Origin: Pseudogymnoascus verrucosus
Lineage: Eukaryota
Strand: one strand, 5' to 3'
Assembly (NCBI GenBank): GCA_001662655.1
Contig: KV460214.1
Length of the DNA: 64,000 nt
Part shown: piece after piece, positions 6,771-32,103 of the stretch
Numbering within the stretch: the first letter of the stretch is position 1
How the letters are laid out: each line of letters starts with the position of its first letter
Notes under the pieces: model-generated
Told to the model about the DNA's origin: nothing
Seen by the model: the letters and a program-made list of their open reading frames with translations, nothing else
Databases searched by the model: none
Made by a program: the position numbers and the translations under genes

Positions 6771-6974
6771 CAAATAGTATCGATAAGACTTAAAAATATC
6801 TCATCGTGGTGGTTCCAGGCGCGTATTTTACTACATCCAGCTTGGCGGACCTGCCTCCACGTTTCTTGTCTGCAAATGGTATCGATAAAACTTAAAAGTA
6901 TCACATCATGGTGTTTCCAGGCGCCTATTTTACCACATCCAGCTTAGCGGATGGGCCTCCACGTTTCTTGTCTG
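6771..6974 (+). repeat. Two-copy 102-bp tandem duplication in the divergent agmatinase/MATE promoter
   Basis: 6771-6872 and 6873-6974 both run CAAAT(A/G)GTATCGATAA...CCTCCACGTTTCTTGTCTG. Confidence 0.92.
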
Positions 6975-7413
6975 TCCCCAGAATCCCGCAACAACACCCA
7001 GCTCAGTTATCGTGGGTATATTACCAGATAAAGTTAGCGCAATATGCATATTGTGGATTGATAGTGCTGCATATCTCCAGCGTGCATGGATTACGTCTCC
7101 GTGCAAAGGCTTGTATCTACACCATGTTATTAATATCGGGTCTCTACGTTATTGTGGCATGTCAAATAGTAATTCCGACGTCTTATCGTCGAGCCCTGTG
7201 TTGATCGGGATTTTAAGGGCTGAACATTGGTCGATAACGATGTATGTATGATAGCGCTGATAATACATCAAATGTCTTGCACAAATATTCCGGTGGCTAA
7301 AAGCCTATGGGTGACCACGCTTGGGTGCAATTTGATCTTGTCTGAAAGGACGATCTGAAAGGGCGACCGCGCGAACCAAAACACGAGTTGAGGTACAACC
7401 CCAAGCTTTCGAC

Positions 7414-8931: not shown

Positions 8932-9737
8932 TAGACAATAGAGACCAAAACAATACGGTCGAATATCAAGACTTGTCACGTGTGTTCTGCCCCCTTCCGC
9001 AGTAACTTACGTAGCAAAGACCAGAGAAACGTCTCGCATACGCCTAGATAAACCCAGGTTATCCTTCTCCTGAAATTATGAGGTTAAAGAGGATAACGTA
9101 TAATTATTTATATTGAAGTCTAGGTGAAGATAAATCATACAAAAGAGGCTTCTGCTATGTGATATTTTTGGTGAGGAAAGCTCGGACTAGGACTAGCCGT
9201 TTTTGTTCGATATTTAGCAAACTCTATGTAACCCTTCACTATAATTTACTATGTAATGGTACCCCCTTTTTTTGCCCTTCGATGATGCATTTACTTCCTC
9301 TGACTATGAGCCAGCGGTTCCGACGATCACACCCTTACCGCATCCGCTAATCAGACGTTGCGGATGAGGCGCTATTCCAACGCCAGGGGATAGATAAGCA
9401 ACTTAGTCGTATGGGAGGTCTGCTCTGATAAGGCGCGTACATTTCCCTTCTTGGTCTTCTTATTGCCTTGTAAGATGCAACAGTGGAGATAGGTAAGGGA
9501 GATAAGGAGCCGGAGTTTCAGGATACCATACAACCAACAGACGAAGCATCTAACTTACCTCTACAGCGCATAGCTACGATAAGGTCGAAATTATGAGGTA
9601 GTTCTGTATCGTATATAGCTGTATATAATAATATTTATATACGACGATCCCAAGCATTGGCTTCAGTAATGTACACTGGCGGTTCGTTCAAGCTGAACTA
9701 TTACAATTAATTGATTTTGACGACATACTCCAGGACA

Positions 9738-11536
9738 ATGATCTCCAAGAGTATGGAGAATGAGAAACAGCTCGCACTTGCTATAGATTCAGGAGGCTCC
9801 GTTGCGGATGGATCAATAAGCCATGCAGCGAATGAAATAGTGTTGAGTAAAGAAGGCTTTAAGCTGTTCCCTCAACCTGTACTTGGCGACAACCTTGACC
9901 CTCTGAACTGGTCCTTCGTTCAGAAGCATACGATTTTGGCTATTGTAATGTCTATGTGAGTTTTACAGCAGGCATTTTATCTCCATTCTAAAGTCAATTA
10001 AGCTCGGATTCTAATACATTGGCATTGTTAGCTACTTCATGTTCACCTACATCACGACCACTACAGTGCCATCATTCCCAGCGCTGGAGGAGAAGTACTC
10101 TGCTAGCTTGGAACAAATCAATTGGACAGTCGCAATTCCTGCTCTTGGTCTCTCCGTCGGACCGCTGCTATGGGCCTCTATAGCGGGCATCATTGGACGT
10201 CGTCCTATTCTCATATTCGGCACAGTTATGGCTCTGGCCGCCACAATTGGAGCTGCTCTTGCCCCGAACTACTCGAGTTATATGGCTGCACGCTTCTTTC
10301 AAGGGCTTGGTGTCAGCCCGGCATCCAATGTTGGCCTAGCCGTAATAAACGACATTTTCTTTGAACACGAGCGCGGCCAAAAGGTGGGACTCTGGGTATT
10401 GGCAATTGATTTGGGTCTTTACTTTGGGCCACTTATAGGTGGCGTTATCAATCTTGCCGGTCACATCTGGATTCAGTGGCTATCCGCTATTCTCTTCGGA
10501 GCGATCTTAATTGCTGAACTCCTTTTTCTACCGGAGACTTTATACCCACGGCACCTCATGCTATCCAAGGTATACCGTGGAGATGTGTCACAGCAGGGTG
10601 TCGAGGAGATTTCAGTCAGAGACTCTACTGGTGAACCTGAGAACATACTAAAAACCAAGCGGCTCCCATTCATAAATGTTACTCCGCTTCCAGGGGTCCA
10701 GCATCCGAAGCCTTATGACACTATGACCCAATTTATTAAAACATTCAAGTTCATTGTCGTTCCTATTTCAATCATGACCTATTGCTTTGGTTGGTACTGG
10801 TGGGTACTGTCAGTGGTCACTCTAGTTCCAATCGCATATGAGCAATATCCGCCACAAATTCAGGGGTAAGCGTCACTATTAGTGCATAATTAAGGGAATT
10901 GTCACGCTAAATTATTACAGACTTCTTTATCTTGGGCTCATTGTGGGTACCCTGGTCTCCGAGGTCCTTTATTCCGGTAGTTTGAGCGACTGGATAGTGA
11001 TCAAACTAGCCAAACGCAACAACCACCAGAAGACTCCTGAGATGCGCATCTGGCTTACCTATCCCGCGGTTATTCTCACCGCAGTTGGGTTGGTTGTCTG
11101 GGGGGTCAGTATTGACCGCGGGTATCACTGGATGGTAGGCCAAGTCGCTTTGGCTATTTGTAAGTCAGACCGGATGATCCTTTCTTTTTCAACTTCCGCT
11201 AATTGCTGCTATAAAGTTGGTGCTGGTGTTCAAATGGGCAACACTGCCATTTGTTCGTATGTGGTGGATGCATATCCCTTGCAAAGCATGGCTATGATGA
11301 CCTTCTATGCCGTGATGCTCAACTTGTCAGCATTTCTGGATCCATTTTTCATTGTTTCGTGGGTGGAAAATATCGGGTTTACTTGGACGTTCATTGGCCA
11401 CGCCATTATCACCGTTGTCGTTTGTATTCCAGTAATGGCTGTGCTTCACCGGTTTGGGAGAACACTGTGCGAGAAGTCTGGAAGCCCAACATGGGTAAAT
11501 CCAGAGTATGAAGTTCATACTCCCAGTAGTATATGA
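9738..11536 (+). CDS. MFS transporter (DHA1-like), about 4 exons
   Basis: PQP..D.LDPLNWS N-terminal motif, plus IGRRPILI, DIFFEHERG, FLPETLY and PEMRIW. Confidence 0.9.
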
Positions 11537-11731
11537 TATGAGATGATATAAATGATATGGTATGATATAAATGATATGATATATCATATAATACCATACC
11601 ACGATGAAGTTTTTACATAGGGATAGATATCATCTCATATCACGGTCTTCACCATGTGATATATCATATCATATCACACCACTTGAAAGTCCCATATAAT
11701 GATATAAATGATATGATATCCACGCAGGCCT
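11530..11731. repeat. Degenerate (ATATG)n/(CATAT)n array with inverted blocks; possible MITE remnant
   Basis: GATATGATAT-type pentamers occur on both strands. ATGATATAAATGATATG appears three times. Confidence 0.7.
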
Positions 11732-11783
11732 CCACGTACCATCGCGTGCTACTATAATACCTACCGATGTGTGAGGAAAGGCG

Positions 11784-12491
11784 TTGCTTCTTTCGCCGCA
11801 AATTGTCATCCCAAGTAAGGTTTTCTATGCACTGTTAGCACGGCCCAGTATGCAAATGTTGATATTCTTACCTCAAAAAACAGAGTATGACCTCTTGCGT
11901 TTTGCAGCTTCCTTGGGACAAGACCGCCGGTCGTCGCCTTTAGACGGCATGTGTTGCCATGATAGTCCAACGAATTTTGTCAGGAATGTAGAATCTCAGC
12001 TACCTGTTCAGGATTTGGAAGGGCAGTGTAGATTGTTGTATAATCGCAGTAAACCTGATGAAGTTGTTCAGGGAACTTGGGGGAGACCATGCTGAGTCGA
12101 TGGCTGGCACGACAGTATTTATGGAACCAGTCAACTGTTTTCGCGCGTCTTACGTTGCTGTTGCGGCCAGGAGGTTACGTGACCTCTGGGCTCGAGGCAA
12201 ATTTCCGAACGAGAAGAGGTGAGTACAGGTAAAAGCACTGAAGCCAGCCAACCATCCCCCGTTTCCAGGAAGCCGCTGTCGTGATCGAATACACAGGATG
12301 CGGCCTTTGGAGAGGCCCGAGGCGGATTTCGGAAATCGACTAACCGTTTCGCGTTTTTAAGCGCTCTTAGGCCGCTTCGGCGGTCGTCGAAGGTAGAGAT
12401 AGGCGTGCCTAGTGGCAGTGAAAGTAAAAGCAGCAATGGCCTAAGAGCGGGAACACGGAAGCGGAAGGCTGACAACAGGGGACGGTTTTAG
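11784..12491 (+). pseudogene. Decayed ORF running into element right-end segment D
   Basis: One frame of about 235 codons is broken only by three TGA stops. It includes STNRFAFLSALRPLRRS (also at ~18795-18845) and GTRKRK. Confidence 0.4.
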
Positions 12492-12947
12492 TGGTGGTCT
12501 TAGCAGCAAAAGCGATGGCAGCTCACAGAGAATTAGGCATCTCTGCTAGAGATGGTCGCTGAATGAGACGACTTTAAAGTTCCTGTTTATGGAAACTTGA
12601 TAGCCAGTTGCTGTATCGTGAGAGTGGTTCTAAGGCTAATGCCGCTTTTATCTAAAAACACTACACTAAATCCCGGAAACGGTAAATCAGCTGTTTAGCG
12701 GTTGATTGTCTAGAGGTACTGCATCTACAATATACAGGGGTGGATGCCTTTAGGCGCGGAGTAAAGCGCAGACATTAGGTGATGCACCTTTAACATTAGG
12801 GCAAGGAGCTAGACGCTCCGAACCAATTATTAGGCTTGAATCACGCGTCCCCATGTCTAGATCTAGATCAATTCTAGGCAACTGAGCGCTAAAGTGTCGC
12901 TGCTTTTCCCAGACTTCAGAAAGGAGAAATCAGGAAATGGTAAACCG
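12222..12947 (+). repeat. Element right-end segment D, copy 1
   Basis: Alignable with 18681-19445 and, in its last ~230 bp, with 35381-35594. Confidence 0.9.
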
Positions 12948-13007
12948 GCATTAGGGGGCCTAAAGTCGAACGGCATCGATGGATTAATACCACTAAACCA
13001 CTGATGC
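12948..13007 (-). pseudogene. T-arm-less tRNA-Gly-like junction sequence, copy 1
   Basis: The minus strand reads GCATCAGTGGTTTAGTGGTATTAATCCATCGATGCCGTTCGACTTTAGGCCCCCTAATGC. The first 20 nt are identical to the tRNA at 2050-2120; there is no T arm or B box. Confidence 0.88.
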
Positions 13008-13479
13008 CAGATTCCTGTTAACCAATTACTGTATTCCGTTCTATGTTAGCGGGCCCGGCTGCTTTAACCACCACGCCCGTTTCTCGTTTCTTGTTTCCCC
13101 ATTTCTGCACCATCCAACACAACATTCCGTTTCTGGTTTCTACATTCTAGACTGTTATGCGTGTCCAGTGGTTTTCCGATTCTAGGATTCAGCTTTCTGT
13201 TACGCACACACTGTGGAAATTATGTCAGCGCATGGCCTACCTCCAGTTTGGTGTCCACACACCTACTTCTTCTCTTCCCTTCATTCTCCTGTCTACCCTT
13301 TCGTCTTTCCTGTTTTCTTCCCTCGCATCTTACCTCTCATTTCTCTTTTGTTCCTGAGAATTTTCTTGGCTATTTTTCCTTTTTTACATGTTACTTCTTT
13401 GCTTGTCTCTTAGTCCCCTGATGATTGAAGTAGTCCGTGGACATGAAGCTCTCAAAGGATGAACTACTTGCAGATATTC
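13008..13479 (+). repeat. Element left-end segment U, copy 2
   Basis: Colinear with 2121-2606. Ends in ATGAAGCTCTCAAAGGATGAACTACTTGCAGATAT (MKLSKDELLADI) at 13443. Confidence 0.9.
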
Positions 13480-14184
13480 AGGTTGTAGATACGACGAATC
13501 TGTAGACACGCACTTCTGGATTCCCTTCTGCGGGTGTTAAAGATGACTTTGTGAACGTTGTGGAAGAGAATGCAAGCATTTTTAGTGAGAAGACTGCCGC
13601 AGTTGCTATGAAGTATGAGCCCTTCTGCTTGCGCTATTCTTGCATATTTAATGAGGATCAGCTAGCCTTAAAACAGGGAATCCGAGCATCAGAGTGATCT
13701 CGACAAGCGCATGCACTACACGGCCTATGAATTAGACAAGAATAACAATGTTATTGCAGCTCAGCACTTGGTTAAACAGAGATAGGTGATGGTTTAGAGG
13801 CTAAGCGGCTAGGAGGCTCAGATTAGTGAAAGCGGCGAGGGTGGAAACAGATATTTGAGGCGGTTGGTGCTCGTTCAACACGAGAATCAAGATATGGTGC
13901 GAGATCTGGGTTGTAGAAACCAATATAGTTCACGTCTATATAGTAGCCATGTTGAAATAAAATAGGTCACTGAGCCTCAGGATATCCCTTGTCTTGCTTT
14001 TTGCACTCAAAGGTTCACTGCGAGTGCGATAGATGCCCGAAGTCGAACTCGATACAGGACACTTCCTTCCGACGGGACAACTTGCTTACTCCGGCTAGGA
14101 GTGAAGCGACCAAGCCGATCCGACGATTAATAGATGATTGAAGAATGAAGATAATGATCAAATGGTCAAATAAAAAGACACATC

Positions 14185-15075
14185 TCAAGCCCGATCCTCC
14201 CAACTCCGCTTCACTATTCCCCAATATCTTGCTGGATCAGATCTCATGTGTCCCACATGGCTCGTACCCTCAAACTTCACCATCTCAACCCTCAGCCCAT
14301 TCCTCTCCGCTTCTTTTGCATGCTCCTCAACATCCCTATCCAAAACAACCTCATCCCCATCTGAGTAGATATAACATCTCTTCGCCTCCTTGCGGATGAA
14401 TTCCGGCCTAACAGAATTGAAAATCACTAAAGCCGAAATCTTCTGTCCCATGATCTGTGGTAGGATATAGCAGAAAAGCAACAAGATGCTGAACATCAGC
14501 TGCATAGGCATTCTCAAGTACCAAGTTGCAGGTAGGCCGAGAGAAAATGTCGCGAGCCCTTGCTTAAAGCGCGCCGTTCCAGGCAACGAGTCATATACAA
14601 TGGTGTTTGCCGGTAAGGGTTGTCCCGTCTCCGCGAGATATTGCTTGGATATTAGCGCGAGTTGCCCGCCGCCGCCGTTGGACATGGCGTGGACTAGGAG
14701 GTCATTGCGGGAGACTTGCCTCTCGTCGGTGTAGGCGCGGATGGCACTGATTGCGGGAGCGAGTGTGGCCAGGCGGTGCTGGATGGAGACGGGGAAGAAG
14801 TCGGATGCGGAGCTTGTGACAAGCAGAATAGGGGTGGAGGGATAGAAGATTTGGTAGTGGGAGGTATATTTTGAGATGTGGCGAGAGGATGCGTTCATCC
14901 ATGATACTAGGAAGATGAGATGGGGTGCATTGGTGTCTGGATTTGGCAGTGGTGCTGAGTCGCTGTCGTGCGTTCCAGAGGGGGTGTAGAGGTATGCTTT
15001 GCTGCTAAGGCGCTTGAAAGATTGAAGACTGTCTAATTGTGAGGCTTCAGCAGCTGTAAGTATAGGTATCTCCAT
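14185..15075 (-). CDS. DUF829/TMEM53/PaxU-like alpha/beta-fold protein
   Basis: Motifs SWMNASSRHISKY, HAMSNGG, YDSLPG, YIYSDGDEVV and HVGHMRSDPARYW. Confidence 0.85.
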   Translation of the reverse strand: MEIPILTAAEASQLDSLQSFKRLSSKAYLYTPSGTHDSDSAPLPNPDTNAPHLIFLVSWMNASSRHISKYTSHYQIFYPSTPILLVTSSASDFFPVSIQHRLATLAPAISAIRAYTDERQVSRNDLLVHAMSNGGGGQLALISKQYLAETGQPLPANTIVYDSLPGTARFKQGLATFSLGLPATWYLRMPMQLMFSILLLFCYILPQIMGQKISALVIFNSVRPEFIRKEAKRCYIYSDGDEVVLDRDVEEHAKEAERNGLRVEMVKFEGTSHVGHMRSDPARYWGIVKRSWEDRA

Positions 15076-15827
15076 ATCTCTGAGACAATTTTACAATTTA
15101 GGAATCAAAATGGAATGGCTAGGTCAGGACTGGCTGGTGCAAGTTCTAAACAACGGATAAAGCTGAGTGTTTATCTGGCCTCGATTATTATATGTGATTA
15201 TCATTCTTCAATCACCCCTGTTAGAGATAGAAACATTGTAAGCATGAGCATTAACAGGATTCGAGATACGCCGAGCCCGACTCATAAGGTCAGGTCGGTA
15301 GGTCCAAATACTTAATACTTCGCTATCTATTTGATACATTTGCGGACATTAGCACACAGTTCATCCGGCTTACATCTTTTGAAGACTTTGATTCACTTTG
15401 ATCTTAGATCCACATCTAACCTCTTAATATTAATGTGGCATGGCAGCAGAAGAGGAAGCTATTCCCGCAATACGTCGTCGCGTCTGCCTAGTCTACACTC
15501 CAACCTCAACGGTGAGCCGAGGTACGCAGGGATTGAATGGTCGTCCCGACTCTCCGACGCCTAGAATGCTTGTTCGTACATAGCCTCACAGGACGAATTT
15601 ACAGCTTACAGAACTCAAACGGGCTGCCTAATTAAAGTCTAATGTACCATTTCGGGCCAAATTGTGAACGAATAATAAAGACATTAGTATAAGCAGCTCC
15701 ACGAGCGGGACAATTAATGCCGTGAGTGCAATTTCTGTTCAACCACGTCGGTGACATTCCCATTTAAAGCTAGAGATCTCCTCTTCACATCATCTAGCAT
15801 AGAACAGCTATAAATCTGCTCGCAAAA

Positions 15828-17252
15828 ATGGCCAAATATACGCCGACAACACCAACAATCCAAGTCCTCTCCAAACAGAACTACGAGGACCAACACCTCG
15901 TGGCCCTCCCCAATGCCCTCCCTCTTCCACCTCTCACCCCACACTCCCTACGCATCTGCACAATAATCCTTTCCTTAACCACCAACAACTTCACTTACGC
16001 ACGCTGTGGTCATCTCCTCGGTTGGTGGGACGTGCATCCTCTGCCTCCGTCCATCCCTGCTGAATTCGCCAACCCGCAGGATTACGGAAGGGTATCGGCT
16101 TGGGGCTATGGCGTTGTGGTGGAGAGTACTGTTCCTAAAGGTCTAGGTATCGAAGTGGGAACGCACGTGTATGGCTATCTGCCAATTGGAACGCTACCTG
16201 TTGACATGCACGTCGAGATCAGTGCAGACGCGAACGGACAGTTTGTGGAAATCAGTCCGCAGAGAGAGAAGTTGATGCCGGTTTACAACCGCTACCTCTT
16301 CTACTCGTCAGAAACGACCGCCCAGCAGAAGGCCGAGCGGAAGCAAAGCGAAGGCTATGATTCTCTTTTGCAAGTCCTATTCGAGGCTGGCTACATGATG
16401 AATCGCTTCGTCTTCGCGTGGGACTCGAGCGAGCTCGTGCATCCCTCCGGCGCCGATTCGGGTTGGACTACCGAGGACGCACGGATCGGGGAAGATACGA
16501 TCCTGCTGCTGTTCGCGGCGAGTGGGAAAACAGCACTTGCGTTCGCCCACCAGTTGAAGTATGGCCGTCCAGCAGGGAAGTCCTCGCGCAAGGTTGTAGG
16601 GGTGGGATCAGACGCACCAAGGGCTTTTACAGAAGGAACAGGGCTGTACAATTCCGTGCTGACGTACGATGCTGATGATGACCATGACATTGGTGTTGAG
16701 GTTGGCGCGGATGCAGACTCGAAGGTTGTCGTCGTCGATTTTGGCGCTAGAGGCGGAGCAGCAGATCGGTGGGCGGAGAAGTTGAGGAAAAGTAGTAAGA
16801 GCGTTACGCTCCTAGGTGTAGGGGGCGAGGTTGCAGCGGAAAGCCAGGAGGTGACAACACAGAAGATGGTGAAGCGCATGGCGGCTGGGAGAATGCAGGT
16901 AAACACTTCAGGGATGAGATCCCAGGCGGTGGGGATTCTAGGGCACAAGACATATTTTGAGGGGCTTTTGACGGAGTGGAGGACGTACAGAGAAAGGGGA
17001 GTGCCGAAAGGGCTGCAACTAGTATGGGGCAAGGGAATGGACGACGTGGGGAAAGGGTGGGAGAGGTTGTATAAGGGGGAGGTAGGGCCGGATGAGGGAC
17101 TAGTGTTTGACTTTTGTCAAGTTGACGCGTTTTGGCGTTTTCGTGGGCCACTTGCTTGTGTGGGCCACTCGCTTGTGAAATACCTTATAATATATACCCT
17201 ATCTGTGCTGATAGACAAGAGGTGTGTGTGGTTGGGTGGTGGTCTTGCGTAG
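15828..17252 (+). CDS. DUF2855-like protein; last ~46 codons are transposon-end and flanking read-through
   Basis: LTTNNFTYARCG..LGWW, YGRVSAWGYG.V.ES, YGYLPI, VYNRY, ASGKTALAFA and the family-like end GEVGPDEGLVF. Confidence 0.8.
   Translation: MAKYTPTTPTIQVLSKQNYEDQHLVALPNALPLPPLTPHSLRICTIILSLTTNNFTYARCGHLLGWWDVHPLPPSIPAEFANPQDYGRVSAWGYGVVVESTVPKGLGIEVGTHVYGYLPIGTLPVDMHVEISADANGQFVEISPQREKLMPVYNRYLFYSSETTAQQKAERKQSEGYDSLLQVLFEAGYMMNRFVFAWDSSELVHPSGADSGWTTEDARIGEDTILLLFAASGKTALAFAHQLKYGRPAGKSSRKVVGVGSDAPRAFTEGTGLYNSVLTYDADDDHDIGVEVGADADSKVVVVDFGARGGAADRWAEKLRKSSKSVTLLGVGGEVAAESQEVTTQKMVKRMAAGRMQVNTSGMRSQAVGILGHKTYFEGLLTEWRTYRERGVPKGLQLVWGKGMDDVGKGWERLYKGEVGPDEGLVFDFCQVDAFWRFRGPLACVGHSLVKYLIIYTLSVLIDKRCVWLGGGLA
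17113..17185. mobile_element. Solo Fot1-like terminal (TIR) fragment
   Basis: TTTGTCAAGTTGACGCGTTTTGGCGTTTTCGTGGGCCACTTGCTTGTGTGGGCCACTCGCTTGTGAAATACCT followed by TA aligns without gaps to 1739-1811 + TA. Confidence 0.88.
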
Positions 17253-17413
17253 GGTTTGAGGTGAGGAAGCAAATACGCGACTGCAGGGTGGTTGACAAAT
17301 GGAGTTATTAACAAACATTTTCTCAAAGGTCTATATAGATGGATTTTTCAAGTCCTATAGCAAAATAATTATATTATATTGTGCAGACAGCGAGAAAGGT
17401 AGCTTAGCCCCGT

Positions 17414-18211
17414 TCAAGCCCATTCTTTGCGCAAATAAAACTCTATCCGGTCCACCTGGCCGCCGTCACCCCAGGCCTTAGTCTGAGTAGAAAAGCCGTC
17501 AGCCATATAAACCTCAGCGCTGCCACTGACCTCCTTCTCATAGTGCGCCGAAAAATGAGTCGATAGATAGCCCTGTAGGGAATTCCCAAGGACGCTCCTC
17601 TCAGTCCCATCGATCCAGTAATCCACCTTGCCCTGCATCGAACCCAGCTGGCCAATCTCGATTTTAAATTCACCGAAGCAGCCGGGATCTATGCTCCACG
17701 GTTCAGGGATGTCCCATCGGTAATTATGCCCTGAAAGGCCGTGCCAGTACCAATTCAATCTGTTCGTGGTTTTGTTGTAAATCCTTCCAATGACGTAGCT
17801 TGACTTGAATCGGTTGCGGCTCAGCTGCAATCCTCTGATCCGTGGCCTGCCCTCCTGATCGAGCTTGTGGCCGTCTGCGTATAGATCGGGGAACTGATTT
17901 TCGATCTGTCGCTCAATATCTGCTTCTTCTCTCTTTGCATCTTCGAGGTCGGCCTCATGTTTTGCTTTATTCTCTGGGTCTGTCTTAATCCCTTTCTGGG
18001 CCTCTAAGGATCTCGTATGTGGCCCTTGAAGGCTATCAAGCAAAGCTTTCAAGGCAGGGTCTATTCAAAACATAAGCTTGTATTGCTGTAGTGATGGTAG
18101 TAGGTTTGATTACTAACCAAGTTCATGATTAGAGTCTGTGGTTCCGTCCTCCTGTTTAGGAGCAAAGGTTCCCGGGTCGGTCTGTGGCCCGACTTTTATG
18201 TTAGGATTCAT
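17414..18211 (-). CDS. Hypothetical protein (main exon 17414-18060; upstream exon and start uncertain)
   Basis: 212-codon open frame preceded by a GTTAGT..TAG intron-like segment (~18061-18117). No family recognised. Confidence 0.5.
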
Positions 18212-18680
18212 TAGTGGGTTTATATTATGAGACAGGTTTATTTCAAGATAAATGTGTACTTAGAGTAAGGCGCTACTCTAGCTTCAAGATAATTTCGATA
18301 CTTAGCGATGGCTAATGAGAAAGAGTCTTCTAGACCTCAAGGGCATCTACAACAGTTATATATAATTGCTCGAGGAGCAGGCACACAATAGTATAAACGG
18401 ATCGCCACGACTTGACCTCTTAATTCTGTACAACACGCAATTGACCAACCGTATGGCGGTTATATGCCACGTCACCGATACAGGCAAAGACACTTTAGGG
18501 ATGTTAGCTCATTGGTAGCTTTCTGTAGTCTGCAATATATGTAGCGCCGACTAGAATGGAGCTGAATTTTAATCTACGCGGCCTTAGACGGGCTGTGGCC
18601 TTGGGGTAGACTTCAGAACTAGGCAAGCCGCTCCTCATTTTGAGGAACTCTTATGGCTACCCGTGGGCCTCCCAAGTGGC

Positions 18681-19445
18681 AGTGCAAATAAAAGTACCGA
18701 AACCAACCAACCATTCTCCGTTTCCACGAAACCGCCGCCGTGATGCCAGACACAGGATGCAGCCTTTCAAGAGGCCCGAGGCAGATTTCGGAATCGACCA
18801 ATCGTTTCGCGTTTTTAAGCGCTCTTAGGCCGCTTCGGCGGTCGTTGAAGGTGGAGATGGACGTTCCCAGTGGCAGTGTAGGTAAAAGCAGCATTAGTCC
18901 TAGAGCTGGGAACACGGAAGCAGAATGCTGACAACGGGGGACGGTTGTGGTGGTGGTCTTGGCGCGGGAGCGATCACAGACGGCAGATAATGGGCATCCC
19001 CGCCAGAGATGGTCGCTGAATGCAACGACTGAGATTTCTGTTAATGGTAAATTAATAACCAATTGCTGTAACGCGTGAACGGTTCTAAGGCTAATGCTGC
19101 TTTTATCTAACAACACCACCACACGAAACGGGCAAACGTACACAGCTATCGCAAAACGGGAAGATGTACGAGGTAGCGCTTTGCAAGGTAAGAACCCAAG
19201 GTTGGAACACGCTAAGGAACTATACTGCATCCACAATATGCAGGGGTGGGTGCGGGTAGTAATGAGCAGACATTGGGCTATGCACCTGTAGCATATGGGT
19301 AGGGGGCTAGAGGCACTGAGCTAATCACTAGTCTTAAATCACGCGGCCTCATGTCTAGATCCAACTCATATCTAGGTAACCGAGCGTCAAAATGTCGCTG
19401 CTTTTCCCAGACTTCAGAAAGGAGAAATCAGGAAATGGTAAACCG
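18681..19445 (+). repeat. Element right-end segment D, copy 2
   Basis: Colinear with 12222-12947, including a 43-bp identical block (18803-18845 = 12345-12387). Confidence 0.9.
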
Positions 19446-19505
19446 GCATTAGGGGGCCCAAAGTCGAGCGGCATCGATGGATTAATACCACTAAACCACT
19501 GATGC
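19446..19505 (-). pseudogene. T-arm-less tRNA-Gly-like junction sequence, copy 2
   Basis: The minus strand reads GCATCAGTGGTTTAGTGGTATTAATCCATCGATGCCGCTCGACTTTGGGCCCCCTAATGC. Confidence 0.88.
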
Positions 19506-20302
19506 CGGATTGTTGTTAGCCAATCCCGTATCGCCCCATATGTAGTTTGGGCACCGGCTGCTCCGTCAGCTTCCCGCTGCTTTTGCGATGCGCCATTTTT
19601 CACGTTTTCGCCACTTTAGAGTCGGTCGAACATGCGTGGCAGTGCAAGCAGGGTTCTGCCCTTCCTCGGCCTACCTAGGGGCTCAGAACGGAAAGTAACT
19701 AATGGGCACACAGTACTGTATAGTGTGTGATGTCTTTGTTTTGGCCCCTCCTACACTTTGCTCAGCCAAGCCAAGAAGTAGCCAGAACAGGGGTTCGCAT
19801 GAACAGAAGATGGCTAGTTTTTCGCTGATTCGGGCGTAAGGCCTAAATAGATGAGACTAGACTGAAGTCGATGGTATGACAGTATGCAGGGCAGAAGGCA
19901 CGTTTTGGAACTTTTCGGGTTACGAGGCTCTAGTGTCAGAGCAGAGGGTCTGGAGACTCCAGGTCTCAGGTGCATTTCAGAACTAGCTAAATCGCACTAA
20001 TTCCGCAATAGTATATATAAGCTCAAAGTTCCAAAGTGTAGAGGTGCTATATCAAAATCACAAGAGGCTAGTTTAAAGGCAGAATATAAAGCGGTTGCTA
20101 TATATAGAGGGCACGTGATTATAAAACTAATGAACTGGAGTTGGAAATTTAGCCTATTCTTCGGAACGGGCCGGATGAACAACATTACGCCTGCATCTTA
20201 GATTTAAACGCGGGGGTGCCACGCTGTCAACCTCGCAGTTGATCTTATCCCTATCAACTACTGAGAACCATCATATCATAACTCTAGAGAAACAAGCCCA
20301 AG

Positions 20303-22546
20303 ATGTCGACGCAACCTATTCAAGTCCAGTGGAGCCTTAATGAAACATCCCAGTCGGTATTTTCTGTTGCTAGGGGAGTCTTGGCTGCGGCGACAAGTGA
20401 CAATGTCCAACCCCTTGCTATACTTGCCTGTGAAAAATTTGGGGCCACAATCGCTATAAGCAGCAGGACAGCCTCTAAGGTTGAGAAAACGATTGCACTA
20501 TCACCAGAACCAGCCCCCGTTAAGTTCTTAAAAGGGCTTGTGGGGTTTTTCCCCAACGATTGTGCTACTCAACTTAGCAATACTCATTCAGGAATCCGCT
20601 TTTTAGGATTAGCGGCTGCTATTGTTACAACAGTCGGCCCCTTTAACGGCGCAAAAGCTCTCGACGTGATGCTGAGGGATTCGGCGACAGACTTGACGTT
20701 GCTTCCCACAGTAAGACATTTAGACGATCTATTAGGGAGCCTTGAAGCTAGATCTTATCGCTGTGGCTTTGCTGAATCTGTTGTGGGCTGGGAGATCGTA
20801 CTGCGAAAGGAAATCTTACCTTCCATTTCTTCAGAAGAACGCCGGCAAAACCTAAGTCAAAATTCCCTACGGGCGCCGTCTTCAGAGACAATAGCTTGCC
20901 TAGTTGCAGCTTTTCGTCAAGTTGCACGAATGGGCTCTTCAACAGTAATTGGGATGACGATAAAAGTTAGCAAAGCCGCGCCATGGATTTTGGCCTTCGC
21001 ACAGTGGTGTCTCGAGATCCCCCCATCTCTATACGTGGATGGAATAGCGGCTGCAGTCCGTAAAGAACCCCAGTCTCAAGTTAATGTTATCGTTATCAGC
21101 AATTCGAGCAAACCACTTGAAATTACCATCCATCACCAACTTGAGGATATAACTCAACTCCTCGCACCAGCATCTCAACTTTTCTCGAGCGGAATGGTTA
21201 CTATTGATTCATACTATCCGTGGCTATTCCAACAACTTGGCTTTAACGGTGACGCTATGTTTCGACTGCTACGCCAGGCCCTTGAGCATGCTATTCCTCA
21301 AGTTCTATTAGCAATGAGGTGTGGTAAGTTTACCTATCTTGGCCAAAGAACGACTTCTCAACATTTACTTGGCGCTATCGACAACTCTATGGACACCTGC
21401 TACCTTAGTCCACTTCCAAATACAGACATTATAGCCCTGACATACGCTAGGGCTCTAGCTATAAATGGGCCAGTAACCTTCATCAATCTCCGACAAGGCA
21501 TGCTTATAGCCGACCTACCACTAGTTTCTCGTCATCTACAGTCATTAATGGAGAAATGTCTATGCAATCAATGTTGCGAATCTACGCAAAGACATGCCAG
21601 ACCAACCTCAAATAAAGACTTCTGTAGCAGAGAAGACTTCTTTCGATCACTAGGTTTTATAATTGTGGAATTACTTGTTCTATCCCTATTTGAGTCTTCG
21701 ACACCTATACTAGTCAGACTTTCACTAGAGAGAAACGGAGGGGTTCCGGTACTAGACGGAACTGTCGCTAAAGTAATTAAAACTGGGGAGTCCTTTCCTT
21801 TTAACGATATGCACCTTCTCGATTGGGCGAGAAGCATGGTTGGACACATGTTTGACAACGAAGAACGGAGCTTGATAATGACCTCAGGGAAAGGTCAAGT
21901 GGTTTACCCTGTTATATTCGACACATTCTATGTCGAAAAACAGGGATACCTCAAGCTTTACTGTCTGCCAGGGGCATTACGATACCAAAATGATACCTAC
22001 AACGTTGTATCATCGCCTGAGGATATTAAGGATGATGAGACCGACAATGATGAGATTGACAACGATGAGATCATGGATGATGAGGCAACTTACCCCAATC
22101 TACCCTCTTTCCCAGCAGTGTCTAAACCATTAAATCTTTTGAAAGATCTCATACTATCGTGGAAGGTAACTATCCGAGAGAATAAGGAACTTCAAATCAA
22201 ACTTATGATACGCTCTAAGACCGACACCTCTCTTGTGGCTGAAACCGACCCCTTACTTATACTTACTTCTTTAAGTAACACACTTTTGCTTGAAAGATGT
22301 CCCCACCACCATTCCGCTCAACTTATAAGCGCAGATCAATTTTCTTCATATATTTCTCTTTGGGATCTAGTCGAAGGTGCTTTGGGCTCTACCTCTCATG
22401 TTGGCGTTGTTCCTGTAGATGGCGCAGATGATCTTCGGTGCTTTGCAATCGCCTACCTAAAGTCGTTGATTCTACGCAGAGGTTCTTGCCTTCAGTGTTG
22501 TCTTAACCTATGCAGAGATACTGGCGTTCCATTTCTTGTTCTTTAA
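20303..22546 (+). CDS. Hypothetical fungal protein, 747 aa, intronless
   Basis: Long ORF with N-terminal AATSDNVQPLAILACEKFG, Cys clusters (CLCNQC, CPH, CLQCCLNLC) and an acidic stretch. Function not recognised. Confidence 0.8.
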   Translation: MSTQPIQVQWSLNETSQSVFSVARGVLAAATSDNVQPLAILACEKFGATIAISSRTASKVEKTIALSPEPAPVKFLKGLVGFFPNDCATQLSNTHSGIRFLGLAAAIVTTVGPFNGAKALDVMLRDSATDLTLLPTVRHLDDLLGSLEARSYRCGFAESVVGWEIVLRKEILPSISSEERRQNLSQNSLRAPSSETIACLVAAFRQVARMGSSTVIGMTIKVSKAAPWILAFAQWCLEIPPSLYVDGIAAAVRKEPQSQVNVIVISNSSKPLEITIHHQLEDITQLLAPASQLFSSGMVTIDSYYPWLFQQLGFNGDAMFRLLRQALEHAIPQVLLAMRCGKFTYLGQRTTSQHLLGAIDNSMDTCYLSPLPNTDIIALTYARALAINGPVTFINLRQGMLIADLPLVSRHLQSLMEKCLCNQCCESTQRHARPTSNKDFCSREDFFRSLGFIIVELLVLSLFESSTPILVRLSLERNGGVPVLDGTVAKVIKTGESFPFNDMHLLDWARSMVGHMFDNEERSLIMTSGKGQVVYPVIFDTFYVEKQGYLKLYCLPGALRYQNDTYNVVSSPEDIKDDETDNDEIDNDEIMDDEATYPNLPSFPAVSKPLNLLKDLILSWKVTIRENKELQIKLMIRSKTDTSLVAETDPLLILTSLSNTLLLERCPHHHSAQLISADQFSSYISLWDLVEGALGSTSHVGVVPVDGADDLRCFAIAYLKSLILRRGSCLQCCLNLCRDTGVPFLVL

Positions 22547-22590
22547 TATGCAGAGATACTGGCGTTCCATTTCTTGTTCTTTAATATGCA
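22509..22590 (+). repeat. Perfect 38-bp tandem duplication spanning the stop codon of the 747-aa gene
   Basis: TATGCAGAGATACTGGCGTTCCATTTCTTGTTCTTTAA twice, followed by TATGCA. Confidence 0.95.
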
Positions 22591-22670
22591 CGGGGAATGG
22601 TCGAGATAGTTTTTACTTAGAGCTTGAAGACTAAATTCTGCCTTTGGTTTTTGCGATATCAGCTCTAAGG

Positions 22671-23664
22671 ATTAGAGGATTATTTTCCCGTTTACCATGT
22701 CTTAACAACAAGATTAAATTCCTAACAGCAGTTTCCGGGGTGATAGAAACTATTTTCTAGTTTTTAGAATTATACACTTTATATTATCGCTGTTTCCCAA
22801 ATTTATGAAACAGTTTTCTTAATCTAAAGTTCGTGGCAGGCAGATTCGACCACCAGTATCACCTATGCTAAGAAACAAAACGAAACAGATACTAGTCAGT
22901 TTAGTGACACACACACTTTATATCACCACATTCTCGATTCTACAAGGGCTTATATCTCTACTGGATCGAGTTCTCCGTCTCTGTCTTCTAGTTAGGGGAG
23001 GTATAGCCTTAACAGATGAGACTAGTTTCGTGCTAGATAACAGAAGGCAACTGGCTCAGACTTAGGCTTAGGTGTAATGTGTTGCTGACTAAACTCTAGA
23101 CTGTCGATTGCAAATTAGTGAAAGGGATGAAGCTGTGGAAAGAACCTATGTGCTGCAACGACGGAACATGTAGGCCTGTAGTTAAAGTCTTTAGAAATTC
23201 CAGGACTACACTATTTCAAATGACCGCGTTCTTAAAGGTGGGACTGATTTACAGTTAGCTTAACCAAGAGCATTTGCCGTATCTTTTTAGCTAAATCCAA
23301 CTTAAGCGCTCTCTATTCCAAGTATATGATATAGTTAAAAGGGGGCAGAGTTAGTTGGAGATTTAGGTACGCATAATACAGCAATGTAGGAATGTTGGAC
23401 ATAGACTAGAGTTTAGACGTTTCAATTCTAGAGGTCTTAATTTACATATGTTGTTTATATTTTTACTTCAGATTTGCTAGCGTACATTTAAAGTCTACTA
23501 TCAATTACTTTATATTAAAAAAGCAAACCTTACTATAACTTAGCCGCTGGTTTTATAACTCTTCTAGGTAGATTCGAGCAAAACCCTGTCCTTCTTTCGT
23601 TTTCTGCTGTTAGGAATTTAATCTTGTTGTTAAGACATGGTAAACGGGAAAATAGTCCTCTAAT
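22671..23664. mobile_element. MITE/non-autonomous DNA transposon of about 1 kb with 61-bp terminal inverted repeats
   Basis: 22671-22731 is the reverse complement of 23604-23664 with one mismatch. The interior is AT/TpA-rich and non-coding. Confidence 0.8.
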
Positions 23665-24481
23665 GACGATAGTGCTGAGATCTACAACGTAGACAACGAT
23701 GACGACGAGAACCTCCCACTAGGCTACGAAACGCACTGCGCTACCTTCCCTTCCATCGCAGCCCAACGCCTCTCAGCGCCACGCTCTCACCTGACCCTCC
23801 TCGTGCTAGTAGCCTGCTACACCTCAATCTTCGTCCTCCTGCTCATTAGCGGGATAATTAGTAGTGGCGACGGGAAGAATAAGTTAAGAGCGAAAGTTGA
23901 CGCGGAGTTTATTGCGTGGTAGATTCTGCAACAAAACAGAAGAGCCTCTTCATAACGATTAAAATGATTTCATACCTCTGGGTTATTTTCCTCCCAGTCG
24001 ACGAGTTGAAAATTCTTACCGTTTCCTACGTCGGCCATCTGAATTTCAGGAGCATCTGGAACTGTATTTTCGCACGTTCTTGATGTTGAGGAAGAGCTGG
24101 CAATTGCACACTTCTGAGCCTTCGAAATGACGCGTTGCTGTGCCGCAGGAAAAAGCTTGCCTCTAGATGCAAAGTGAACAATACATCCGAAAGCAATTTC
24201 ACGAAAAAAATCTTGCGTCGTGCGCAACTTCAAAGCTAAGTTAAAAGAGAAGACAGGCACAGTCAAAGTTTAAGATGAAAGAGAAGTAAATCTGGGTATG
24301 ATGATAACGATTTATTAGATATATATGTGTATATATGAGCCACTGTATTAAACGTCTATTTACTTGAGAGGTTCCTCGATGGCCGAGTTGGACTCATATC
24401 ACTAAAAATTTGCTACCGCACTAGATCTGCAAGCATAAATATTTGGCATCCGACGCACTTGGGCAACATTTCGCAATTGCT

Positions 24482-27400
24482 TTAGTCTCCCCTCCCTCCT
24501 ATCATGACGGGATCCGCATTAAGGTTCTCTATCTCAGTACCATCGATGTTAAACTTCGCCTCCCCAACTAAATTCTTCGTCTCTTCCAGTAAGCCCTCTA
24601 AATCATCTCTCAACATTGTAGATGATACCTGTATCACGGCAAAACCCGCGTAGCCTGGTTCAAGTACATGCCGTGTACTGAGAATATCGCCGTCCATTCT
24701 GTTAAGTAGTTGTCTGAGGTTCATGACTTGTGGGGCTTTGAGATATGGAGGCATCGGTCTACCGGTCGAGATTGCGGAGGCGACTATGGCGAGAAGAGAT
24801 GTTACTTCTTGGGATGTTAGCTGTAAGGAAGAGATGAGACGTTTAAAGTCTTTCAGCCACGGCCCTGGAGTGTTCTGGGTGTTATCTGCAATTGGTAACA
24901 CTCGGAACGTTTCAGATGCATGGGCAATCATTGTCGTGAAGCGGATGATGCTAGTTTAAGTTAACACTAGAATCAACAAGGAGGTGCAAAGCTAACTTCT
25001 GGGTATGATTGATCAACCTGTTATATGAAGCTTGCGGGAATTTCCCCCCAAACGTGGGCTCCCACGCAGTGAATTTAATATGCTTCTCTATGCCTTGAAG
25101 GAGGACAAGGTCTTTGACGTATAATCGAATTCGAGCCTTTTCAAGCCTTCTTCCAGGACTCCCTTTGTCTTTCAGATCCCCTTCTGCATCTCTACTTTGC
25201 AATGCAACAGTCTGATGGACGGAGCTATAGTAGTTGCAAAGAATATAGAGACAGGATCCTAGGTCCTTGCGGAGTTGGCTTCGAGCTGTGATCACTGACG
25301 GGAAGTATGTGAAAAAGAATGCCACGCCCACTCCGGCAACGACTGTAGCTAATCTGAAAGGAGCGAGCTCGTATAGGGGGTGATAGGCTTGGCCGTTGGA
25401 AATTGACCTAAGGATGCCGACCTTCTGGACTTGAAGTTCATATCCCACTATCAAGGTAACCGTGACCATTCCGATTATAGGAATGACTGGATTGTTAGGG
25501 CTCTTGATCAATGGATAGTGGTAAAGGAACATAGTGATGCCAGTAAAGACAATAATACCTGCCGGGTGCTGATCAACGATATACCAGATAATGTACGATG
25601 CGACCATAGCGACTAATGTTCCACTGAAACGTAAGAACTGACCATAAACCCCAGACCCAGCGGTTTGAGTCATGCTTATGGCAACCATAATCGAACCCCA
25701 GACGAGTCGCTGTTCGATAAAGAATTGCTGAGAATTCCTCAGGAAACAAATGATTGCAATAGCCATGGTTCCCGTTGCTACTCTGAAACCAAATGCCGAC
25801 TCTGCAGAACCAAAGAAGTTCGGAATAACTCGAAATTTGTCCGTCACCTTTTCCCAAACAGACGTAGGGCGAAGGTGTTCGGTGTCTTTCTCACCTTGAA
25901 TGGCGTCGCCAAGATGGACTGTCGGACTGCCAGATCGGGTACTATAGACTTGGTAGTCTAAATTGCTGTCTTCTCTAGAAAGCATGGCCCAGAACCATTT
26001 TTTCATTTGTTTACACGTTGGCAGTATAAGGCGCTTCTTCGACATTGTTCCATCATCCACTTTAGAGTCAGCATACTTGACCAGGTTTAAAACTTCTCTC
26101 GCAGTCACAAGAAAAGAATATTCTAGCTTTAGACTGGTCAGAATTTTGCCTTTCGGGAACAGAATAAACTTACATACATCAAGGATAAGATATAGTTGAG
26201 ACTGATGTAGCTCGTGCAATGAATTGTCTGAGGGCTTCATGCCGTTTAGTTGCGAATAGTCATCCACACCCATCTCGGCACACCATTTTTTCAGAGGACC
26301 TTCTCGTTGGCGCAAAAAGTCTTGTATCGCATTCTCTAAGTATTTAGCGAAGCCTCTCTCCCCAGCCGAGTAACCTAGGCTGTTTGCTTCAATGTCGGTA
26401 TCAACCGGGGATAATGGTCGTTTTGCGAGTTCGAGTGTGTACAAAGAATGATCGAAGCCCTCAATCACAGTTTTCTGGAGTTGTCTGACCCGATCATTTA
26501 ACTGTTCAAGTATCTCCTTCCACTGACCCTTCTCTTTGTCTTCCAGAGAGTTGGATTTCGATCCAGTCAAACTGTCGGCGGTCCTTGGAATTCTCGGAGC
26601 TTCCCACCCACCACGCTTTTCAATTCGATCTGTGATTCCAATGAAAGACTCTATCCCTAAAATTGGAACCAATATGTTCTTTATTAGCCGACATATCGTT
26701 ACCATGTCCTTCGATCCTAATTTGCCCCAAGCCACCTCACGTTTTGCATATCGAAGCTCTGATTGTACCTTAACTTGTAGCTCGGTTACGTCGGCGGTCA
26801 CTTTCTTTAGAGCATCAGCTTCAGGCCAAGGTTTGGCCCTAGTAGAGAACCAACTCTTATTGGCGCTTCTGGCGTATGTGGTGGAGCTCTTCGTGCCGTA
26901 CCACTCACGCTTGGGTAGGGAGAGCATATATTGTCCCTGGACTTCGAGGGTGGTCTTCAATTCATGGAGCTCTTCCGTTACGAGCAAGGAGATGATAGTT
27001 CGAGAGCTGAAAGGCACGATGACAAGGCTGACTGAAGCTGAGATTCCGAAACCAGCGAAGAACGCTTGAAGCAAACGGGAGACTAGAAATCTCTCTAATC
27101 AGTATTCTGCTACGCGTAAAAAAGGGAATGTTACCTAGAGCTTCGACCTGCTTCATAGTTACAAACAGCGTTCCATAGGTTCCTGTAATGTTGATGAAGA
27201 TTGAAAATATTATAGAAGGCAAAAAGTATTGCGGTCGATACGCTCGGAACCTGCAATATAACTGTCAGAAGATTGGCGGACGCAAACTGCGGTTGGGACT
27301 GACGTGTTGATTAGCCATACTTCAAAGAATAGCCAAATGCCCATGTTAGCACTTGCCGCGGCGTTGTACGATGGGCTAACTTGAGCGCCTGTGACAGGCC

Positions 27401-28019
27401 CATTGGCCAACGCTTCTTTCGAAATATGAGTAGTATTTTCTCGAGCTTTGACCGCACACCACATGGCAAGTAACGATATTGCGGCTGCAAGACAAACCAA
27501 AAGCTACCAAAGAACCTAAGTTAATTCAACAAGAACTATAAGAGGTACGATTGGTCCATACCGAGGCCACCAAAAGGTTTTGGATAAATCTTGCTCGAGG
27601 AAAAATCGGAACTGCTAGGATGGACATAATTGGAATGAGATAGCCAATCGTCAAGAAATGGTCCGCAACATGGTTGTCCTGATATCTGCAGGAAATCAGT
27701 TTTTTCTTCTGGGAAGCAAAAAAAGGTTATGGTGTATACATGGCAAGTCCGATGGTAGGTGCGATGGCTCCTCTTCGACATGTCAGCTCTGGATAGAATA
27801 CACCGCTACAGCATGGAGGACGATTTTAAATAAATAAAAGCCGCCTGCCTATACTCTCTTGAAGAGCGCTGGCAACTGCGGCCTTTCTGCGTATTAAATG
27901 GGCTCCCAAATGAGGAAGGTCAGTCACAGTACATACTTGATCATTAGCAACACGATGGGAATGTTTATTCCAAGTTTGCCTGCGATTCTCTTCCATATCG
28001 AAGAGTTTTTCGACTCCAT
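24482..28019 (-). CDS. Aromatic acid exporter (ArAE/FUSC-like, Bre4-type) membrane protein, multi-exon
   Basis: GAIAPTIGLA, PRARFIQ, AKREVAWGKL, SAFGFRVA, QRLVWGSIMVAISM, TLIVGYELQ, WEPTFGGKFP..SY and G.PMPPYL. Start approximate. Confidence 0.85.
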
Positions 28020-28797
28020 CGTCTCGTCGTTAACCTGACCTTGAGCTACATTCGACACCGTGCTTATAGCTCTGGTCTTGTCACCATAGGCCGTTGGCCT
28101 GTCTTTGGTCGTGTTTGATAAGGATATTACCAGAACGTGGCCCTCCCACAACCCAACAGCTGAGAAATCTAACTGCTCTAAAATCGCAACTGGACGCACA
28201 TGGATCCCGTCAAACCAAACTTTGAAGTGCAATACTGTATGTTAATTCGCCAAGCAGAACTCTCTCTCGAGAAAATACTTACCTCATGATGATGAAAACC
28301 CCCGAAAATGGGCTGACACACACATCCGCAAATACGTAACGTAACATAGTCTACTTTTTGCCACGTCAAATACGTCAAGCGCGAACGATAGCTTTCTTAC
28401 TCGAACTGGTCGTGATGCTGGTGCAGGAGTCCATGACTGACTGTTCCATTCGACCTGGCCTCGATGACAAGGCTGTTGTTGAGAGGTAGAACAGCGGAAT
28501 TGGCATGATTAAGGTGGCCGAGATTGAACTTAGCCGCTGAACCATGATCAATGATTATTAAACCAACCGCCTCGGCGTTGTGGAGACGAGTAGTGCCGGC
28601 AGACAAATGCCGAAGCTAATGGTCCCGTGTACGTACAGTACTGGTACACCTGATTATACATACGTTAGGCCTTGGGAGCGTCCAAGGAATTGGTATATTA
28701 GCAGCGATGTTAGTCTAGGCGATAATGTAATGTATTATAACTATGTTGAAAGTGATATCGCCTGGCTCTGACCGTTTTGAAGTTTTGCGCTCTCGCG

Positions 28798-31700: not shown

Positions 31701-31807
31701 ATGAGGACTGGGAGACATCAACGCCGGAAGAACGCCGCCATATCATTGATAACTACAATATGATTAAGAACGACCCATTGTTAAAGAAAAGAGAACATCT
31801 GTTTTAG
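28798..31807 (+). CDS. Sterol 3-beta-glucosyltransferase-like (GT1; UGT80/ATG26-type catalytic domain), multi-exon
   Basis: IHVVGSRGDVQPF, GHRVRLATH, IIANPPSFAHVHCAERLGIPLH, VVHHGGAGTTAAG and PFFGDQPFWG. Confidence 0.9.
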
Positions 31808-31961
31808 GGGAAAGGCCATCATGGCCCTAGTAATTGATGCTTACGTGGCTAATCATGAGGTTCCCAAGTGGGTCGTGATTGTCACCAATAAGGGCCAAGA
31901 GGAGTATGTAGTCCTAAAGTTAGTGTTAAGGTTTCCAAACGTATATACGCTCTTTGTTACA

Positions 31962-32103
31962 GCGACCACGCAAAAGCAGGTGCCCGTTTCTCGTTTCCTC
32001 GTTCCCTATTTCTGTAGTATCCAACACAATATTCCGTTTCTGGTTTCCAGATCCTAGGCTGTTATGCGTCCCCAGTGAGTTTCCGATTCTAGGATTTAGC
32101 TTT
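31962..32103 (+). repeat. Internal fragment of left-end segment U (orphan)
   Basis: CGCAAAAGCAG..GCCCGTTTCTCGTTTC...ATCCAACAC..ATTCCGTTTCTGGTTTC...ATTCTAG.ATTTAGCTTT matches ~2202-2344 and ~13075-13196. Confidence 0.88.

Follow-up and report, generated by a model that had tools for sequence, protein, structure and literature searches.

The 64,000-nt window of Pseudogymnoascus verrucosus DNA analysed here (contig KV460214.1) carries three cargo units in tandem ahead of an intact tRNA-Gly(GCC) gene, and each unit begins with a short sequence that follows the tRNA but lacks its T arm. This mimic is quite likely the end of a site-specific element, whichever enzyme moves it. It is also probable, though we hold this with less assurance, that the mimic is the target-like att end of captain-less, Starship-type cargo units, which would integrate at tRNA-Gly through a recombinase acting in trans and leave the gene restored. 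If true, fungi have a tRNA-targeted, gene-restoring integration akin to that of bacterial genomic islands, and a Starship-type system can acquire a fresh target when its end is made out of that target's sequence.

The tRNA-Gly(GCC) gene lies at 2050-2120 on the minus strand (ARAGORN; Rfam RF00005, 57.1 bits) and is the only tRNA that these two programs call in the window; as the earlier note had expected, neither calls anything at the junctions. It is the restored target and forms the inner end of the array. Its first 20 nt constitute a core with four exact copies in the window, at 2101, 12988, 19486, and 35635, so that target-homologous direct repeats stand at all four boundaries of the array. 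The three junction cores, all on the minus strand, are J1 (12988-13007), J2 (19486-19505), and J3 (35635-35654), the last being the outermost and attL-like. Between them lie the units, each read on the minus strand: unit C (2121-12987, between the tRNA and J1), unit B (13008-19485, between J1 and J2), and unit A (19506-35634, between J2 and J3). The units are 6.5 to 16 kb long, and their cargo is unrelated from one to the next. On the minus strand the order reads U3-core-L-A-U2-core-L-B-U1-core-L-C-U0-tRNA, where L denotes a left end and U0, U1, and U2 denote right ends.

Counted from tRNA nt 1, the first 108 nt of the left end are 96-98% identical (2, 2, and 4 differences between copies), while the identity of J1 and J2 further inward is 66-86% per bin. 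The tRNA-type left ends, again on the minus strand, are L1 of unit C (12717-12987), which begins with the tRNA mimic, L2 of unit B (19220-19485), and L3 of unit A (35381-35634). The right end of unit C, U0 (2121-2604, minus strand), which is also the 5' flank of the tRNA, and that of unit B, U1 (13008-13477, minus strand), were recognized by their likeness to each other: 75% identity over about 500 nt, with 35/40 beside the core. U2 (19506-19620, minus strand), the diverged right end of unit A, belongs to the same family, since over the last 80 nt none of 2000 shuffles was as good. The outer flank beyond J3, U3 (35655-35714, minus strand), is unrelated to U0 and U1 (1133/2000 and 1109/2000 shuffles as good; 49/2000 against U2) and is a candidate for the sequence that first stood 5' of the host's tRNA. 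With its unique outer flank, element-borne inner flanks, and whole gene inside, the array has the pattern that repeated site-specific integration would give. A further U-type fragment without a core lies inside unit A (31962-32104, minus strand; 84-86% to U0 and U1), and from its sequence unit A may be two fused units.

The homology ends at tRNA nt 1 in J3, in a related metagenome contig (L001), and in a contig of another isolate (contig set X12). The letters AACA, which we take from yeast work to be a mark of tRNA start regions, stand at -12 or -13 in all five flanks, including U3 (at -13) and that of L001; the background is 758 of 20,000 random places (-16 to -9). A 9-mer, AAAAGCAGC, occurs 8 times against 0.86 expected, every copy within 620 nt of a core, although the motif was selected post hoc and its occurrences are partly homologous to one another. 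L and U share no long inverted repeat (92/1000 and 659/1000 shuffles as good), only short arms at the core (described below). A profile search of the window gave no further copies of L, U, or the 5S-type ends X and Y below E 0.05, save cross-matches between X and Y.

The mimic behind J2 (19446-19485, minus strand) was delimited by alignment to tRNA-Gly. The earlier note had proposed that the junction is an element end that keeps tracking the tRNA past a plain duplication, and this is borne out: when nt 21-60 of J1, J2, and J3 were aligned with tRNA nt 21-70, none of 5000 dinucleotide shuffles was as good in any of the three. The missing T arm is likewise confirmed, as the best alignment drops tRNA nt 49-63, precisely the T arm. 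Most of the likeness comes from nt 22-35. The stretch past the anticodon is weaker (14/5000, 20/5000, and 40/5000 shuffles as good for J3, J2, and J1, respectively), and in L001 it is nonsignificant (991/5000). Descent from tRNA-Gly is clear for nt 22-35 and likely, in this lineage, for nt 36-53. The A box is kept, and the GCC anticodon is found in all three window copies, but L001 has TCC. A B-box-like 9-mer (at most one mismatch) is absent from J2, J3, and L001 (300 nt each), in line with the proposed loss of the B box, but J1 has one with 1 mismatch at nt 37.

The proposed symmetry of the junction fares unevenly. The first 14 nt of the tRNA and junction nt 22-35 form inverted arms that match at 11/14 positions around a 7-nt spacer; in the tRNA gene itself the same arms match at 9/14 around a 6-nt spacer. 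Symmetric half-sites are therefore plausible, but the half-site pattern [AG]GCAT[CT]AG is unspecific, with 23 matches in the window, 13 of these away from any end. The reported 10-bp inverted repeat amounts to 9/10 in J2, 8/10 in J1, and 6/10 in J3, and its outer part is unconserved. The reading of CTAATGC as a remnant of the acceptor 3' strand is not established, given that the same letters also occur in 5S-type ends. Alternatively, CTAATGC may be a binding motif of the element, because L001 shares 13 nt, GGTCGCTGAATGC, with the 5S-type left end at this place. Another inverted repeat with half-site letters (53515/54031) lies inside a TRI12-family gene and was put down to chance.

We infer the mobility of the units, their order of insertion, a circular intermediate, the identity of the enzyme, and the promoter silence of the junctions. 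The proposed element is non-autonomous and would run from a right end U through tRNA-Gly nt 1-20 into a left end L, which opens as tRNA-derived nt 21 onward, such that its closed form, U-core-L, would resemble the target on either side of the crossover. A site-specific recombinase supplied from another locus, in all likelihood a tyrosine recombinase of the Starship captain type, would cross the element with tRNA-Gly(GCC) within nt 1-20. The outer product would be host flank-core-L, and the inner one a whole tRNA that has gained a different 5' flank. The inner tRNA would then again be a target, and therefore units could accrete in tandem, in the order A, B, C, with the newest adjoining the tRNA. 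Lacking the T arm and the B box, the junctions would not act as tRNA genes, and the motifs suggest a promoter-dead state. The spacer is 6 nt in the target and 7 nt in the junction, a difference that a strict tyrosine-recombinase model does not explain.

About 450-500 nt inside units B and C lies a second junction, of 5S type and unnoticed in the earlier note, in which the right end (X) and the left end (Y) of a 5S-rDNA-targeting element are fused; unit A has L without any such junction behind L3. In unit C, X1 (12188-12526, plus strand), recognized through the ENA ORFs P0002 and P0106, is fused to a 5S-like core with Y1 (12527-12716, plus strand; 13/16 to 5S nt 21-36). In unit B, end X2 (18680-18985, plus strand), with an inverted-repeat arm at 18879-18904, joins a 5S-like core with Y2 (18986-19219, plus strand), which holds the other arm at 19084-19109; both are also delimited by contig joins in set X12. 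Among the best 150 of 650 matches in a search with P0002, 142 match 5S read backwards, 9 match the window, and 1 matches both. Residues 7-43 of P0002 are antisense 5S, joined to window positions 12550-12188 (residues 36-145), and P0106 is a second join of antisense 5S to X; in both, X joins 5S from about nt 20. At least three X12 contigs have the 5'-terminal 26 nt of a 5S gene ahead of 18991, and one enters 5S-like letters past 18974. Compared with 5S nt 21-40, the window agrees at 13/16 positions both at 12528 and at 18989 (local alignment, 61/1000 and 2/1000 shuffles as good, respectively), and Rfam finds no 5S halves beside the X-Y joints in the window. From these joins, X is the end abutting the 3' part of 5S and Y the end abutting the 5' part.

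The design of the 5S-type junction parallels that of the tRNA type, in that Y starts like 5S nt 27-36 and L starts like tRNA nt 21-35. X and Y contain a 26-nt inverted repeat (0/1000 shuffles as good) that includes the AAAAGCAGC motif. Because the two X-Y copies are only 81% alike, far below L, the tRNA site looks like the one kept in use here. Published 5S-type repeats match the X-Y zones loosely (6-8 of 10-12 letters). Among 15 comparisons of end types, the 13 nt shared by L of L001 and Y gave 3/1000 and 18/1000 shuffles as good, and end X2 and U0 have 12 nt in common (38/1000); Y2 against the window's own L is at chance (700/1000). By sequence, the ends of tRNA type and those of 5S type are thus connected modestly, even thinly. 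The X end also shows an oddity of annotation: 12188-12420 and 18680-18870 consist of degenerate tandem units. The annotations of several Pseudogymnoascus genomes place hypothetical proteins there, apparently false gene calls in repetitive, non-coding DNA. A contig (L002) placed in an Acidobacteriota metagenome-assembled genome carries at 3001-3120 a fungal-type 5S gene (Rfam, 78 bits) followed by a T run, and is likely fungal contamination of that bin.

Related ends occur in other isolates. Four public contig sets (X2, X7, X12, and X21) were compared with 17000-36999 of the window at 80% likeness; the last three each hold less than 0.1 of the sampled words, so their uncovered parts prove no absence. 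A variant letter of L at 19377 is found on 6 (X2), 6 (X7), 1 (X12), and 2 (X21) contigs, and ENA ORF P0084 runs through another L variant. These variants indicate that the L end is a multicopy family. One X12 contig has the core and L behind 149 unlike letters. A 14,976-nt contig of set X2 and a contig of set X7 read L-core-13 nt of flank, then 215 other letters, and then 18778-18973, a joint from 19518 to 18778. Contigs of the same two sets carry U2 and U3 through the core and then 9 and 8 nt of L, respectively, fewer than the 31 letters required to count as a bridge. Cover of the cargo is patchy in X7, X12, and X21, three of the four sets; 17667-18333 in unit B is uncovered in 3/4 sets and 32341-33674 in unit A in 2/4. 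Among the joints listed for 17000-36999 in the four sets, an interval that leaves the tRNA locus outside, none cleanly skips a unit or represents an empty site. A search with exact junction patterns returned 0 viral, 0 prokaryotic, and 1 metagenome contig. In L001 the likeness to L extends for about 150 nt, next to a flank that is unrelated; at 1-408, 330 nt upstream of its junction and facing away, it also holds the start of an oxidoreductase-like gene (GxGxxG), presumably of the GMC family.

The units carry multi-gene cargo, namely transporters, transcription factors, and enzymes by Pfam. Unit C (3082-11536) encodes a Zn2Cys6 transcription factor, an arginase-family gene, and MATE and MFS transporters, and unit B (14185-18064) encodes DUF829, DUF2855, and one unknown ORF. 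In unit A, one part (32513-34986, minus strand) is an intron-containing gene without a Pfam match, whose DxSGS motif has what we take to be a vWA-like look, and the other (20303-31555) encodes a 747-aa unknown protein, a FUSC-like transporter, and a family-28 glycosyltransferase. Pfam searches of 177 ORFs of the window (all 40 of at least 150 aa, plus selected shorter ones outside identified genes) found no DUF3435 (PF11917), tyrosine recombinase, or transposase in the array, and the units encode no endonuclease among these ORFs. Auxiliary genes typical of Starships (DUF3723, ferric reductase, patatin-like, NLR) are absent from the window's Pfam matches, and no captain linked to the X and Y ends was found. 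The enzyme must therefore act in trans or have been lost, and, since the units carry no enzyme, such a system would be invisible to captain-anchored Starship searches.

Two candidates for a hidden enzyme were considered. The 747-aa gene (20303-22546), at the end of unit A, has no Pfam match and gives a confident predicted model (pTM 0.88) that has no Foldseek match at E 0.001 and whose best VIA Z is 5.2, to unrelated folds; no recombinase or transposase fold is among the matches, with residues 42-294 well tested. Apart from itself, this cysteine-rich protein is most similar to one from a Pseudogymnoascus sp. (88%), and its family (76 matches, patchy in ascomycetes) includes a Phialocephala protein at 75%. 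The L-proximal 'ORF' P0001 is no recombinase relic, as relatives use different frames for this DNA and the substitutions by codon position (16/16/12) show no codon bias. The sole transposase domains in the window belong to a Fot1/pogo-type relic (715-1566) outside the array. This broken transposon (1-1815; DDE_1 and HTH_Tnp_Tc5, inverted repeat 1-28/1756-1783) lies 235 nt downstream of the tRNA, and a relic of the same end is found at 17104-17189 in unit B.

In bacterial tRNA islands and tandem cis-mobilised elements, the att core lies in the tRNA gene, the gene is restored, islands accrete in tandem, and enzyme-less members are moved in trans. The units described here differ in being eukaryotic, with intron-containing cargo, in having the crossover in the 5' end/D arm, and in having an end that mimics the remaining tRNA. 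The Voyager paper (PMC9156397) also notes that bacterial ICEs insert at tRNA genes. Among the nearest known systems are the 5S-rDNA Starships of the Voyager, Enterprise, and Arwing families (PMC9156397, PMC11162782), likewise cargo units whose target-homologous direct repeats lie in a Pol III gene present in many copies. The Voyager insertion point is 20 bp into the 5S gene (PMC9156397), and the X-Y junction of units B and C has a like position, about nt 20-26 of 5S. Starship termini contain target-homologous sequence and leave no footprint (PMC10104507), a miniature Hephaestus transposes in a strain with a full-length copy, and circles as well as captain-dependent integration of circles have been reported (bioRxiv 10.64898/2026.09.21.753150). 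In contrast to the described 5S insertions, which are thought to be disruptive, the target here is tRNA-Gly nt 1-20 and is restored; in addition, the units are 6-16 kb, in tandem, and without captain or auxiliary genes, and two have a second, fused att-like junction. We do not file them as Starships because the defining DUF3435 captain, the first gene of a Starship, is absent.

The starfish survey lists AT-rich and 5S target sites and ran tRNAscan on its sites (PMC11162782). Of the 42 curated Starships in its Table S1, 3, all from Fusarium (Ffuj_Starship2, Foxy170_Starship1, and Fpro_Starship1), have the direct repeat TG(G)TGGTATT. It has the 8-mer GTGGTATT in common with the junction, precisely where the core meets L; 301 of 20,000 random zones match at least one of 10 longer published repeats. 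The 8 nt serve as a lead only. The three elements differ in being 82-87 kb with captains present. Dada elements (PMC3706591, PMC8869645) are also tRNA-gene-specific eukaryotic DNA elements with tandem insertions and end motifs common to the target, but they have their own DDE transposase, duplicate 6-7 bp, usually within tRNA nt 8-13 or close to the anticodon, and split the gene (PMC3706591), and the accessible text describes no multi-gene cargo. WHO elements of Torulaspora/Lachancea (PMC7282813) insert successively, leave the gene whole and fragments behind, and have the newest unit nearest the gene, but they use an endonuclease and homologous repair, target a protein gene, and encode the enzyme in each unit. 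Dada and WHO are analogues that fail on enzyme and anatomy. In the accessible parts of the Tangerine, Peltigera, and Metarhizium papers, tRNA appears only in methods or references, and a search of mostly open-access literature found no description of a fungal tRNA-targeting, gene-restoring cargo array.

A wider version of the Starship-type reading draws in the 5S-type junctions. The array might be an integron-like, two-site cassette array, built from enzyme-less circles with a 5S-mimicking and a tRNA-Gly-mimicking site, either usable by one of two Starship-type captains; we regard this as possible but doubtful. Each insertion at the tRNA site would regenerate the landing pad, stacking accessory cassettes in a self-renewing locus, and the tRNA-type end would record a switch from 5S to tRNA by way of a captured, trimmed piece of the new target. 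The fused X-Y and U-core-L junctions fit circles or tandem insertion equally. Site-specific integration at tRNA-Gly with target-mimicking ends could also be the work of another enzyme, either a Dada-like DDE transposase or a Crypton-like recombinase, the 5S junction being an unrelated passenger. The window without a captain, the L of unit A without a 5S-type junction, and the mismatch of spacers, which would suit a short target-site duplication, all agree with such an enzyme, as does Dada, which targets tRNA genes, inserts in tandem, and has short sub-terminal repeats common to the target (PMC3706591). Nevertheless, this is unlikely, since Dada duplicates 6-7 bp and splits the gene whereas here 20 nt are common and the gene is whole, the units have no transposase, and motifs are shared with the 5S-type ends. 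Rather unlikely, too, is a passive relic, in which a 5S-type element captured tRNA-Gly and its flank, the captured gene decayed, the array grew by recombination at the 5S site or unequal crossing-over, and gene conversion kept L alike, L then being no recombination end in its own right. Units B and C can indeed be read as tandem 5S-type elements (Y1...X2, 12533-18985), and the other arrangement on the X2 and X7 contigs, L-core-short flank-X, would suit it, but it is tRNA-type ends that bound the array, where no 5S half is found. Moreover, L is much better kept than X and Y, J3 lacks them, and L001 retains its stretch of L behind an unrelated flank.

That the mimic is the head of a tRNA-derived SINE, encodes a non-coding RNA made by Pol III, or serves target recognition as a guide of RNA or ssDNA is quite improbable. 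The homology does begin at tRNA +1, where an A box and a tRNA-type 5' flank are found, and the junction hairpin folds better than 200/200 shuffles in J1 and 196/200 in J2. However, the hairpin is expected because the DNA is palindromic there, and L001 breaks 3 of its pairs. The T-arm-less cloverleaf is unstable (+1.0 kcal/mol, compared with -19.6 for the real tRNA), and the mimic keeps 3 of 5 pairs of the anticodon stem. Across four sequences, 72% of cloverleaf cells are paired (55% in the anticodon stem). The covariation analysis that the earlier note called for gave nothing in favor of a structured RNA: 0 two-sided changes among 16 cloverleaf pairs, with the shuffle control not exceeded, four sequences giving such a test low power. 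Furthermore, the flanks are of the U family or tRNA type in 5/5 cases rather than random, unlike SINE-like dispersal with unrelated flanks. With no caller match, an unstable cloverleaf, no compensatory change, TCC in L001, and the B box absent from three of the four copies, a working or T-armless tRNA is not plausible, and the alternative of a structured RNA or ssDNA finds no support. Least probable is WHO-like homing, in which the tRNA gene would be cleaved by an endonuclease and then repaired on the template of an allele that already has an insertion, gaining a unit and leaving gene fragments. An identity of 20 nt is short for homologous repair, the units encode no endonuclease, and the fragments are 96-98% conserved, with fixed ends and no decay. 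In its favor, WHO elements build tandem clusters with target fragments in which FBA1 is kept whole (PMC7282813).

The Starship-type reading names exact sites, tRNA-Gly nt 1-20, the 108-nt left end, and the U-type right end, and with these sites in hand a change of target, mobilisation in trans, and tandem accretion can each be put to a direct test. A reusable, non-disruptive tRNA landing site would also interest fungal engineering.

Several smaller features were seen along the window. At the end of the 747-aa gene, 22509-22590 is an exact 38-nt tandem duplication, for which at least one contig in each of sets X2, X7, and X21 is single-copy; it may be recent or an assembly error. The ESM Atlas gave no usable match for the 747-aa protein or for the ORF at 36100. 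This interrupted ORF (36100-37564), with a 33-nt coding repeat at 36547-36665, begins about 450 nt outside J3; it has no Pfam or Atlas assignment, and its contig depth is raised in X12. Between the arginase-family and MATE genes of unit C, 6771-6974 is a 102-nt tandem duplication (88%). Finally, in 22655-23682, a pair of 61-79-nt inverted repeats surrounds about 870 nt, and at 23603-23661 about 1.75 kb of different DNA is present in set X7; this segment is probably a small transposon derivative.
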